Shown: piece after piece, positions 29,049 through 31,057 of the stretch
Numbering within the stretch: position 1 is the first letter of the stretch
Layout of the letters: every line of letters starts with the position of its first letter
DNA from: Clostridia bacterium
GTDB lineage: Bacteria; Bacillota; Clostridia; Oscillospirales; CAG-272
Direction: 5' to 3'
Length of the DNA: 63,653 nt
NCBI GenBank assembly: GCA_017452475.1
Contig: JAFTMJ010000003.1
Location: forward strand, 1-63,653
Notes under the pieces: generated by a model
What the model was told of the DNA's origin: nothing
Databases searched by the model: none
The model's input: only the letters and a program-made list of their open reading frames with translations
Program-made: the position numbers and the translations under genes

Positions 29049-30046
29049 TAAAGCGGATTGAGGAAATAAATAACCGCAGGAATATAAACAACCGTGTTTT
29101 CACTCTTGTGGCGTCCTATCTTAACAATTATCCCGATTTGGTAACAAGTAAAACTATTTTGGAAATAACTAACGGAAATAAGGAGAATGAGGAAAGGGCG
29201 TTTGCCTCATTCCTTGCCAATGTTTTTTCCGAAAACGAAAATGAGATAAGAGTGCTTGAAAGGGAATATCTTTTGCCCTCTGTTAAGCGTTTATCCCCCG
29301 AGGAGTATCTGAAAAACCCGTTTTTGCAGAATATAAAAATTCCCAAAACCGCAAAGGGCGGGTGGACTCTTGGCTATCAATCCTATAAGCCGTACGAGGG
29401 ATTTATTTACCGTGATATTGAGGTAAAGCCAAATTATACCGAAATTCCCCAAATCGGCTTTTTTGACACTGAGCTTTCCTTTCCAACCGTGTTTGAAAAC
29501 GGCATTGAGTGGATGGCTATTAAGCCAAACGAAATCGAAACAATGGGTGCCCCGATTGAAAAAGCCCGTGGGCGTGTCTTAGTTTACGGTCTTGGCATAG
29601 GATATTTTGCTTATATGGTCAGCGAAAAAGCGGAGGTTGACTGTATAACCGTTGTGGAACGGGACCAAAATGTAATTGACTTGTTTTGTGAGCATATCTT
29701 GCCCCAATTTCCTAACAAAAGCAAAATTCAAATAGTTAAATCCGATGCGTTTGAGTACGCAAAAAACAAAATGAAAAGGGGCGCCTTTGACTATGTTTTC
29801 ACCGACCTGTGGCACGATGTGTCAGATGGGGTGGATTTGTATGTGAAAATGAAAAAATTCGAGGGGGAGTGTCCAAATTCCCACTTTGAATATTGGATTG
29901 AACGCTCAATTCTGTCAAGCATCCGTTGGAGCATTTTTGATGGTATTTACTCCCGTGTAAAAGCAGGTAAATTCAACGGTACTATTGAGGAAATAGAGGG
30001 CTATTTGAAGGACAGCTATCTCAAAAGCTTCGTAAAATTCGTATAA
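29045..30046 (+). CDS. Putative SAM-dependent methyltransferase (spermidine-synthase-like fold)
   Basis: VLVYGLGIGY, ITVVERD, DAFEY, DYVFTDLW. Confidence 0.6.
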   Translation: MIKRIEEINNRRNINNRVFTLVASYLNNYPDLVTSKTILEITNGNKENEERAFASFLANVFSENENEIRVLEREYLLPSVKRLSPEEYLKNPFLQNIKIPKTAKGGWTLGYQSYKPYEGFIYRDIEVKPNYTEIPQIGFFDTELSFPTVFENGIEWMAIKPNEIETMGAPIEKARGRVLVYGLGIGYFAYMVSEKAEVDCITVVERDQNVIDLFCEHILPQFPNKSKIQIVKSDAFEYAKNKMKRGAFDYVFTDLWHDVSDGVDLYVKMKKFEGECPNSHFEYWIERSILSSIRWSIFDGIYSRVKAGKFNGTIEEIEGYLKDSYLKSFVKFV

Positions 30047-30076
30047 TACAAGGGAGGAGCTATCCTCCCAATATAT

Positions 30077-30153
30077 CTACCCGTAGCCCAGCTGGATAGA
30101 GCAACAGACTCCGACTCTGTAGGTCGTAGGTTCAAATCCTATCGGGTAGGCCA
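30077..30153 (+). tRNA. tRNA-Arg(CCG)
   Basis: Acceptor CTACCCG/CGGGTAG, D-loop AGCTGGATAG, anticodon arm ACAGA-CTCCGAC-TCTGT, T-loop GGTTCAAATCC, encoded CCA. Confidence 0.95.
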
Positions 30154-30154
30154 A

Positions 30155-30192
30155 AAAAACGACAAATTTCGACAGAAATTTGTCGTTTTTTA
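30155..30192 (+). terminator. Terminator after tRNA
   Basis: AAAAACGACAAATTTC-GACA-GAAATTTGTCGTTTTT. Confidence 0.8.
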
Positions 30193-30194
30193 TT

Positions 30195-30362
30195 CAAGCC
30201 ACAGGCTTGGTATGGAATCACGCGTTAGCGTGTATGGTATCGCCGTAGGCGTATGGCATCACCAAAGGTGCATTTTTCTGCTGCTTGATTCCATACGATT
30301 GCTTTGCAATCAATTCCGTGCCGCAACAAGTTGCGGATTCCATGCACGGCTCAGCCGTGATT
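30195..30362. repeat. Modular motif-plus-hairpin array
   Basis: GTATGGNATC x3 (30210, 30232, 30251) and inverted RATTCCRTRC x3 (30287, 30312, 30336) interleaved with different short perfect hairpins. Confidence 0.75.
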
Positions 30363-30503
30363 GAGTACACGCGGGTTCAAATCCATACTGAAAAGCGAAA
30401 AATATTTTTTATCTTTCCTTTCGCACCTTTGGTCGAAAAGCATTGACTTTATGTCCCCACAGTTGTATAATATGTATGCAACCATAAAATGCAGGAGGTA
30501 GCT

Positions 30504-30791
30504 ATGAGGGAAGGAACAAGCGGATTTTGGATTAATAAAATTGACGGTGCGATAAGCATCGGCTATGAGGATTACGGCGTTTCCCAGTTCGGCGGCGGAT
30601 GCTTTGAAAAAACCTACTATTTAAACAAGGAAAATTCAAAAAAATTCCTCTCAGCCTTGAAGAAGGAGTATAAGGGTACCCTACGGGAAATGGTTGAGAC
30701 TGCCTTCGGCAAAAACTTTAATGACCCACTATTTTGGGACTTCTGCAAGAAAAACGAAATAACCTTCACCTCCTCCACCTGGAGCAGCTGA
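30504..30791 (+). CDS. Hypothetical protein
   Basis: 95-aa ORF with AGGAGG RBS; no recognised motif. Confidence 0.7.
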   Translation: MREGTSGFWINKIDGAISIGYEDYGVSQFGGGCFEKTYYLNKENSKKFLSALKKEYKGTLREMVETAFGKNFNDPLFWDFCKKNEITFTSSTWSS

Positions 30792-30810
30792 TTTTTGAAA
30801 GGCGTGTGCT

Positions 30811-31057
30811 ATGATTTATACGGAAATGACAAAAAAGGCTCTTAGCCTTTCCTTTGATGCTCACAAGGGTCAGGTTGACAAAAGCGGTATGCCATATGTT
30901 TTTCACCCCTTCCATTTGGCTGAGCAAATGGCTGACGAGGATACAACGGTTGTCGCCCTTCTTCACGATGTGGTGGAGGCTTGAGTGCATTACCCCTTAC
31001 GATATTGAAAGGGCAGAAAAATACAAACAAGCAATAAAGCTTCTTGAAAGCGAATAG
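30811..31057 (+). pseudogene. HD-domain (RelA/SpoT hydrolase-like, Mesh1-type) pseudogene with internal deletion
   Basis: MIYTEMTKKAL...AHKGQVDKSGMPYVFHP...ALLHDVVEA-stop (30811-30984); family-like C-terminus ITPYDIERAEKYKQAIKLLESE follows at once in another frame. Confidence 0.75.

Follow-up and report, generated by a model that had tools for sequence, protein, structure and literature searches.

On a modest balance of the evidence, the stretch behind the tRNA-Arg(CCG) gene at positions 30154–30388 of the window (the whole stretch of DNA analysed, 63,653 nucleotides) is one copy, lacking a gene, of a DNA repeat that is modular and dyad-symmetric, occurs in gut and rumen Clostridia and, in its complete copies, forms the upstream module of PF05635 gene cassettes. 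The array of hairpins and linker words in this stretch very probably belongs to the superfamily of Gut-1-type hairpin-and-linker repeats. What is new here is a linker class, uncaptured by Rfam, of these known but uncharacterised repeats. The descriptive part of the account (anatomy, copy number, range, polarity, turnover and mosaics) is secure, and the mechanism is what we infer from it.

Anatomy and pairing of the window copy

The element occupies the 3' flank of tRNA-Arg(CCG) (30077–30153, forward strand; called by ARAGORN, 60.3 bits with the Rfam tRNA model), and all of its parts are given on the same strand. An intrinsic terminator with 17-bp arms and a T-run (30154–30191), located as an inverted repeat and by a terminator scan, is followed after a gap of 3–6 nt by the array, which opens with hairpin 1 (CAAGCC-aca-GGCTTG, 30195–30209). 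The left half (30210–30269) contains the linkers GTATGGAATC (30210), GTATGGTATC (30232) and GTATGGCATC (30251), alternating with the hairpins ACGC-gtta-GCGT (30220–30231), GCC-gta-GGC (30242–30250) and ACC-aaa-GGT (30261–30269). The centre (GCATTTTTCTGCTGCTT, 30270–30286) measures 17 nt rather than the 16 bp of the initial annotation. The right half (30287–30358) carries the inverted linkers GATTCCATAC (30287), AATTCCGTGC (30312) and GATTCCATGC (30336) and the hairpins GATTGC-ttt-GCAATC (30297–30311), CGCAAC-aa-GTTGCG (30322–30335) and ACGGC-tca-GCCGT (30346–30358), the loops of which are complements of the left-half loop types. The 3' strand of a long-range helix, P1 (CTGCTGCTTG, 30278–30287), can pair with the 5' arm and loop of hairpin 1 (30195–30204). 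The tail (GATTGAGTACACGCGGGTTCAAATCCATAC, 30359–30388) is common to most gene-less copies and includes a T-loop-like word, GGGTTCAAATCC (30373–30384).

The six 10-bp motifs and seven perfect mini-hairpins that had been annotated initially were recovered exactly in place, and all seven spacers, from 30195–30209 through 30346–30358, fold perfectly. The annotated extent of 30195–30362 describes the array and falls short of the full element, as the terminator (30154–30191) and the tail (30359–30388) travel along with it. The linker word of the window class is GTATGGNATC. Four of the six window linkers fit this word exactly, and they are its only exact fits in the 63.6-kb window. The forward strand folds with −75.7 kcal/mol (z = −3.9 vs shuffles) and the reverse strand with −67.3 kcal/mol (z = −2.6). 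The terminator scan also marks hairpin 4, followed by ATTTTT at the centre, as a weak terminator-like site. After the T-loop-like word, the tail region (30359–30415) continues as an A/T-rich weak hairpin. The 11-nt segment formed by hairpin 4 and GC (ACCAAAGGTGC, 30261–30271) has a perfect inverted copy 151 nt downstream (30423–30433), which is missing from the orthologous copies in genomes G014 and G001.

The flanking genes have housekeeping functions and include those for formate-tetrahydrofolate ligase, TsaE and TsaB. The window contains no same-strand PF05635 gene in the ∼70 nt that follow the right half, and no integrase was found among ten neighbouring genes or within several kb of the array. 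The next open reading frame (30489/30504–30791, 95–100 aa), driven by a strong promoter (TTGACT-17-TATAAT, 30443–30471), has no match in Pfam, NCBIfam, PADLOC or defence-system libraries and is absent at the empty sites of G003 and G011. A 57-aa frame at 30811–30984 resembles, as judged by eye, the N-terminal part of an HD-domain (RelA/SpoT-type) hydrolase, ends early and is probably a gene fragment. The window copy itself, which is gene-less, is probably without effect on the neighbouring genes.

The pairing of the spacers was surveyed in 98 spacers from 24 oriented dyads. Perfect Watson-Crick hairpins make up 93 of the 98, with 64 distinct sequences, and Watson-Crick pairing amounts to 97.7% compared with 32.8% when the arms are re-dealt, which upholds the earlier observation that hairpin sequences vary while pairing is kept. 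Mismatches in ∼460 spacer pairs comprise two G-T and one A-C, and the counts are similar in other linker classes. A strand-asymmetry test of G-U against A-C was dropped as the mismatches are too few, though their scarcity is itself informative. The loops are of the G(N)NA type in linker orientation, with complements in the inverted half. This mirroring of loop types between halves is observed in every linker class, and the position of the purine-loop half with respect to the tRNA changes from class to class.

P1 and hairpin 1 are mutually exclusive, and both covary. In 17 copies, P1 is 96.5% paired, with five pairs changed on both sides, a result reached by 0 of 500 shuffles and compared with 18–41% in slid controls. 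Its covariation includes a hairpin-1 loop position, and the window copy forms 8 of the 10 pairs. Hairpin 1 is 99% paired with four pairs changed on both sides. The two halves had also been proposed to pair into a multi-branched rod, an idea that is not supported: the variable linker positions show no compensating changes. Linker position 7 reads A39/C25/T7 on the left vs T79/G3 at the right mirror position, the other variable positions give C-A or T-T, and the nested linker register pairs no better than shuffled registers. A linker-linker rod was rejected as a selected structure on the basis of 20 dyads in nested, parallel and shifted registers, with 18–48% non-pairs at variable positions.

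Layout, range and turnover of the repeat

The same anatomy was traced through 65 arrays of the window's linker class (the GTATGG class), ∼40 of which are dyads. The polarity of the ∼40 dyads is always '>>><<<' ('>..<') and in none '<..>'; the units are direct within each half, with one inversion at the centre. Eighteen of the dyads begin 50–65 nt past the 3' end of a tRNA (Arg, Met, Glu, Ser, Tyr, Leu or Gln). In every case the '>' half is the one into which the tRNA reads, and no dyad faces a tRNA 5' end. One terminator type, CGACAA..TTGTCG, recurs before arrays at different tRNAs, and the terminator is therefore apparently borne by the element. The last hairpin is followed by GATT, after which comes a PF05635 gene with its ribosome-binding site or, alternatively, the tail with the T-loop-like word; in the gene-linked copies, the ribosome-binding site and the PF05635 start codon occupy the tail position. 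The T-loop-like word is present in at least 10 of 16 gene-less GTATGG dyads. It resembles the 3' part of tRNA-Arg here, yet it is identical behind tRNA-Met, Gln and Tyr elsewhere. The T-loop tail was not found downstream of 50 PF05635 genes and was rejected as the general end of gene-linked cassettes. A sigma-70 promoter scan detected no promoter inside the arrays.

The host genome (2.1 Mb, 94 contigs) contains 11 GTATGG clusters: the window copy, a second head-to-head copy at C53:16949–17125 and nine one-directional arrays. One of them, on contig C53, is gene-linked and ten are gene-less. These counts, together with the 18 of ∼40 dyads behind a tRNA, bear out the suggestion of a modular, multi-copy repeat with tRNA association. 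Strict arrays of all linker classes number ∼30 in the host genome, and 14 of these are located at contig ends. Examples within ∼120 nt of an end are C28:28–108, C33:51–96, C48:38–83, C54:38–83 and C84:8–65, among others; such hairpin-and-word arrays near contig ends indicate that the arrays break assembly. Logan contigs of SRR12529367 likewise end at window positions ∼30150 and ∼30288. Other non-coding repeats, with CCCCGTAGCCTCCACTTGTTAAGGGGAGGTGGCTTGCG.AGCAAGACGGAAGGG and TGCATTCTGCATT-type words as examples, adjoin one-directional GTATGG arrays at C9:6800–6900, C65:12965–13050 and C87:240–400.

The taxonomic range was mapped by scanning 185,579 prokaryote species genomes, one per species, with the exact pattern GTATGGNATC-N8-16-GTATGGNATC, for which ∼150 chance matches are expected by our own estimate for a collection of this size. 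The scan gave 80 loci, 39 of which have a fully palindromic spacer. All 39 are in metagenome-assembled genomes (MAGs) of Clostridia, Eubacteriales, Oscillospiraceae, Acutalibacteraceae or Christensenellaceae, mostly from the guts of ruminants and other animals. The remaining 41 loci lie in unrelated phyla and never have palindromic spacers (0 of 41). They constitute a natural control, which excludes a chance origin of the palindromic arrays. Phage and plasmid records gave no array match by pattern scan or BLAST, and 45 of the 46 pattern matches in viral contigs lack palindromic spacers, leaving at most one candidate; a phage or plasmid origin was rejected on these grounds.

The host genome has at least four further linker classes of identical build: GTATATCATC behind tRNA-Arg(ACG) and tRNA-Leu, GTGAAAT(A) behind tRNA-Trp and at many contig ends, AGTGAAGTT, AGCTAAATT behind tRNA-Gln and ATGATGT behind tRNA-His. 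With the Rfam model of Gut-1 (RF01706), the GTGAAAT arrays reach 71.4, 63.5 and 62.5 bits, above its gathering score of 50 bits. The AGTGAAGTT arrays (49 and 40 bits) and the GTATATCATC arrays (23.6 bits) score below the cut-off. In the window region 29500–31000, Rfam gives no Gut-1 match even at E-values up to 10, and an Rfam identity for the window array was rejected on this basis; the GTATGG arrays of contigs C53, C7 and C87 do not match RF01706 either. The model fits the left and right halves on opposite strands. Gut-1 matches are present in 107 of 251 genomes of the order (78 above the cut-off) and extend over 62 of 139 genera; single genomes contain up to 18 or more copies.

Gut-1 was reported from metagenomes as a candidate sRNA with three hairpins (Weinberg et al. 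2010, PMC2864571) and was rated an RNA by its authors on covariation. Like each half of the window array, it has three short hairpins, free in sequence, with a single constant word between and around them, and it shares with the window class the gut Clostridia, the same genome and niche (e.g. behind tRNA-Trp) and the dyad build. The constant word differs, GUGAAAU in Gut-1 and GTATGGNATC here. The published description comprises neither the dyad partner half nor the terminator, the tRNA association and the PF05635 neighbour, all of which are noted here. The window array is a sister of the Gut-1 motif with a different linker word, and Gut-1 is one half of a dyad element that represents one of several linker classes. 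The novelty of the repeat is accordingly partial, because the sister class is the described family RF01706, and is retained for the window class, which is unmatched in Rfam.

Turnover of the arrays is apparent at orthologous sites. Behind the orthologous tRNA-Arg(CCG), genomes G014, G001 and G017 contain the same array. At this site, G062 and G053 have GTATATCATC words, G019 has GAAATCC words, G044 has ATGAAGC words and then a second GTATGG array, and G064 has GTGAAATA followed by GTATATCATC arrays. The site is empty in G003 and G011, where the tRNA and terminator are followed by the ligase gene. The terminator and array are 91–92% identical to those of G014 and G001, compared with 75% and 69% for the flanking protein gene. 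A mosaic copy at tRNA-Ser in G011 joins a near-identical window-type left part to a G017-type right part. Several hairpin modules recur (CGCAAC-aa-GTTGCG, GCC-gta-GGC and AATGC-aaa-GCATT), always in the same orientation relative to the linker, which suggests that modules are shuffled at the linker words and that copies have spread from locus to locus and across species. At L034/L003 (G017:C43), tRNA-Arg, its terminator and the array form a block whose orientation towards the upstream spermidine-synthase-like gene is the reverse of that in the window.

PF05635 (Avd-like) genes downstream of the arrays

The initial annotation held that the array is not explained by any nearby gene. This is true within the window; elsewhere, the family lies directly upstream of PF05635 genes. 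An array lies immediately upstream of all four PF05635 genes in the host genome, and its word differs from gene to gene. PF05635 is encoded in 45 of 50 congeners (∼140 genes), and about two-thirds of 50 loci inspected in the genus have an upstream array. Eight GTATGG arrays directly precede a gene of the C53 type, with products 69–94% identical to the C53 protein. The C53 protein is assigned to TIGR02436 ('four helix bundle protein'), matches PDB 2RLD and has no match among defence-system models. Linker class tracks protein subfamily across the genus, and the words of related proteins are themselves related (e.g. GTATGGAATC with GTATATCATC, and GTGATAT with GCGATAT).

The position of the promoter depends on the class. 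In several classes, the PF05635 promoter is located after or over the last unit, so that these arrays lie outside the mRNA, and in some the last word overlaps the -35 or -10 element of the gene. In the gene-linked GTATGG copies, no promoter was found between the array and the PF05635 start codon, and the array must therefore be part of the mRNA leader through terminator read-through. Co-occurrence of arrays with a cognate protein is weak: no C53-type gene at ≥74% identity is present in 6 or 7 of 10 GTATGG-bearing congeners, which are MAGs of 65–95% completeness.

Another PF05635 subfamily, found in congeners (loci L075–L078, L083, L085, L096 and L101), has no hairpin arrays. Its genes are flanked by short tandem words in inverted arrangement, for example GGTATAG-type upstream and CTATACC-type downstream, a layout like that of rRNA intervening sequences. 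Upstream of the gene-linked cassette of the host genome, C53:16860–16905 contains ..CGACACGCCTACGGGTCACCA, which is similar to ..CCCGTACGGGTCACCA, the 3' end of the tRNA located before the orthologous cassettes of other species; ARAGORN calls no tRNA at these positions.

Enzymatic partners were sought by domain. The HUH/RAYT-like nuclease suggested as a partner was rejected, as PF01797 has no match in the host genome; it is present in 18 of 50 congeners, unrelated to array content. Reverse transcriptase (PF00078) is absent from the host genome and present in 9 of 50 congeners. A diversity-generating retroelement (DGR) was rejected, as the host genome has no reverse transcriptase and the arrays come with no template or variable repeat, and the PF05635 cassettes are not retroelements because reverse transcriptase is absent here and rare in the genus.

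Readings of the element and comparison with known systems

The evidence leans to DNA rather than RNA. DNA is favoured because G-U pairs are few, the loops are mirrored, the array has no promoter and it lies behind a terminator, and because of the mosaic copies and an array identity of 91–92% vs 69–75% for the flanking gene. As a mechanism, we tentatively propose, at somewhat less than even confidence, that the element acts and evolves as DNA, spreading and reshuffling by recombination at linkers while template switching keeps the arms complementary. The unit is a constant linker word of 7–10 nt with a short perfect palindrome drawn from a shared pool. A full element consists of the terminator, hairpin 1, three to four units, a centre that is an inverted copy of the hairpin-1 arm and loop, three to four inverted units and then the tail or a PF05635 gene. 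Whenever a strand becomes transiently single, its palindromes would fold; recombination at linker words would carry copies from one terminator flank to another and reshuffle them, and the perfect complementarity of the arms would be maintained by template switching inside the palindromes. Template switching in quasi-palindromes transfers a change in one arm to its partner, and double changes in short palindromes of DNA do not, therefore, require selection for structure. Complete copies would form the upstream module of PF05635 gene cassettes, and gene-less copies such as that of the window would have no role for their neighbouring genes.

Several observations run against the DNA reading. P1 covaries as expected of an RNA or a single-strand switch, though an inverted repeat kept as DNA gives the same counts. 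The gene-linked GTATGG arrays would lie in the PF05635 mRNA leader. A purely symmetric DNA model does not account for the asymmetry at linker position 7, and the high conservation of the array might stem from selection acting on its sequence and not from recent spread. The searches brought up no enzyme able to move or copy the element; the host genome encodes neither RAYT nor reverse transcriptase.

A structured RNA, which would arise by read-through from the tRNA operon, is an unlikely alternative. Its hairpins would display single-stranded linker words, hairpin 1 and P1 would form a switch, and gene-linked copies would act as a 5' leader that stabilises or regulates the PF05635 mRNA. The forward-strand fold (z = −3.9), which beats both shuffles and the reverse strand (z = −2.6), is in line with this reading, as are the mutually exclusive and covarying hairpin 1 and P1, the sister arrays that match the covariation-based RNA candidate RF01706 and the gene-linked GTATGG copies without a promoter between array and start codon. 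In contrast, only 2 G-U pairs were found in ∼460, loop types flip with linker orientation and the half with purine loops relative to the tRNA varies by class. The array also starts 3–6 nt after a strong terminator without a promoter of its own, and in other classes the PF05635 promoter follows or overlaps the last unit.

Somewhat more doubtful is a docking array for a trans-acting, sequence-specific PF05635 protein (of the C53 type here), in which each linker word would be one binding site and the hairpins would be spacers or structural cues. The tracking of linker class by protein subfamily, with related words for related proteins, is consistent with docking but is equally expected if array and gene are co-inherited. 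The last word that overlaps the gene's -35 or -10 element in some classes and the one gene-linked and ten gene-less GTATGG arrays of the host genome would also fit, as would the inverted arrays of short words that flank another PF05635 subfamily and the requirement of DGRs, which use Avd, for a DNA hairpin with a free stem and a GRNA loop (PMC3240598). However, 6–7 of 10 GTATGG-bearing congeners have no C53-type gene (≥74% identity; completeness 65–95%). A bolder reading, which we regard as a long shot, is that arrays and PF05635 proteins may constitute an undescribed, reverse-transcriptase-independent system at stable-RNA genes, in which a pentameric Avd-like protein would read the class word between DNA hairpins with G(N)NA loops. 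Such a system would be attached at tRNA terminator flanks here and at rRNA intervening sequences elsewhere. The displayed word would be the same kind of cue that DGR targets need, gene-less arrays would be extra docking or landing sites, and Gut-1 would be a DNA element and not an sRNA.

A remnant of a small integrative element, with the tRNA 3' part and the tail as att cores and the 3 + 3 inverted words as arm-type integrase sites, is highly improbable: the tail does contain GGTTCAAATCC (in orthologues GGTTCAAATCC-ATCGG-TTA), close to the tRNA's GGTTCAAATCCTATCGGGTA, empty sites exist and tandem elements occur in the order terminator-array-tail-terminator-array, but no integrase is found within several kb, the tail has the same word at tRNA-Met, Gln and Tyr whatever the tRNA, the palindromic spacers are left unexplained and gene-linked copies have the gene outside the dyad, not between its arms.

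The element is the usual upstream neighbour of PF05635 genes and has a fixed place behind tRNA terminators. The adjacency of array and PF05635 gene links two families of unknown function, the Gut-1-type repeats and the Avd-like genes. In practice, the arrays break short-read assemblies of gut Clostridia, and compensating changes in such arrays can pass for RNA covariation. The importance of the element is moderate and would be greater if the PF05635 connection proves functional.

The REP/BIME sequences of enterobacteria and Pseudomonas are multi-copy extragenic palindromes behind gene ends that form composite clusters with defined linkers and are associated with RAYT transposases; they are non-coding and can break assemblies. 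The present repeat similarly has many extragenic copies of a palindromic unit (11 clusters and ∼30 arrays). In REP/BIME, however, the palindrome is conserved and the units alternate, whereas here the linker is conserved, the palindromes are diverse (64 distinct among 98) and the units are direct in each half. Moreover, the RAYT (Y1/HUH) partner of REP/BIME has no counterpart in the host genome. Sponge RNAs of the CsrB/RsmZ type contain many hairpins and a repeated short word with GGA. Here, GGA is located between the hairpins and only in this linker class, other classes being without GGA; unlike these RNAs, the window array has no promoter and half of its words are inverted.

The target of DGRs includes a DNA hairpin with a free stem sequence and a GRNA loop as a required cis element (Guo et al. 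2011, PMC3240598), and DGRs, which use the PF05635-family protein Avd, are the only system with a studied member of the family (PMC3240598). The free stem, the constrained loop (GRNA there and G(N)NA here) and the linked PF05635-family gene recur in the present arrays. The DGR hairpin is single with a stem of 7–10 bp, whereas the stems here are 3–6 bp long and arranged in arrays, and the parallel is an analogy rather than evidence. In 23S rRNA intervening sequences, a PF05635 open reading frame lies inside a long inverted repeat (Pfam description; bioRxiv 10.1101/2024.02.27.582315). These sequences are inserted inside an rRNA helix, whereas the present element follows a tRNA terminator, both of its halves precede the gene and the window copy is gene-less. 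The two have in common a dyad-symmetric non-coding structure at a stable-RNA gene and an association with PF05635.
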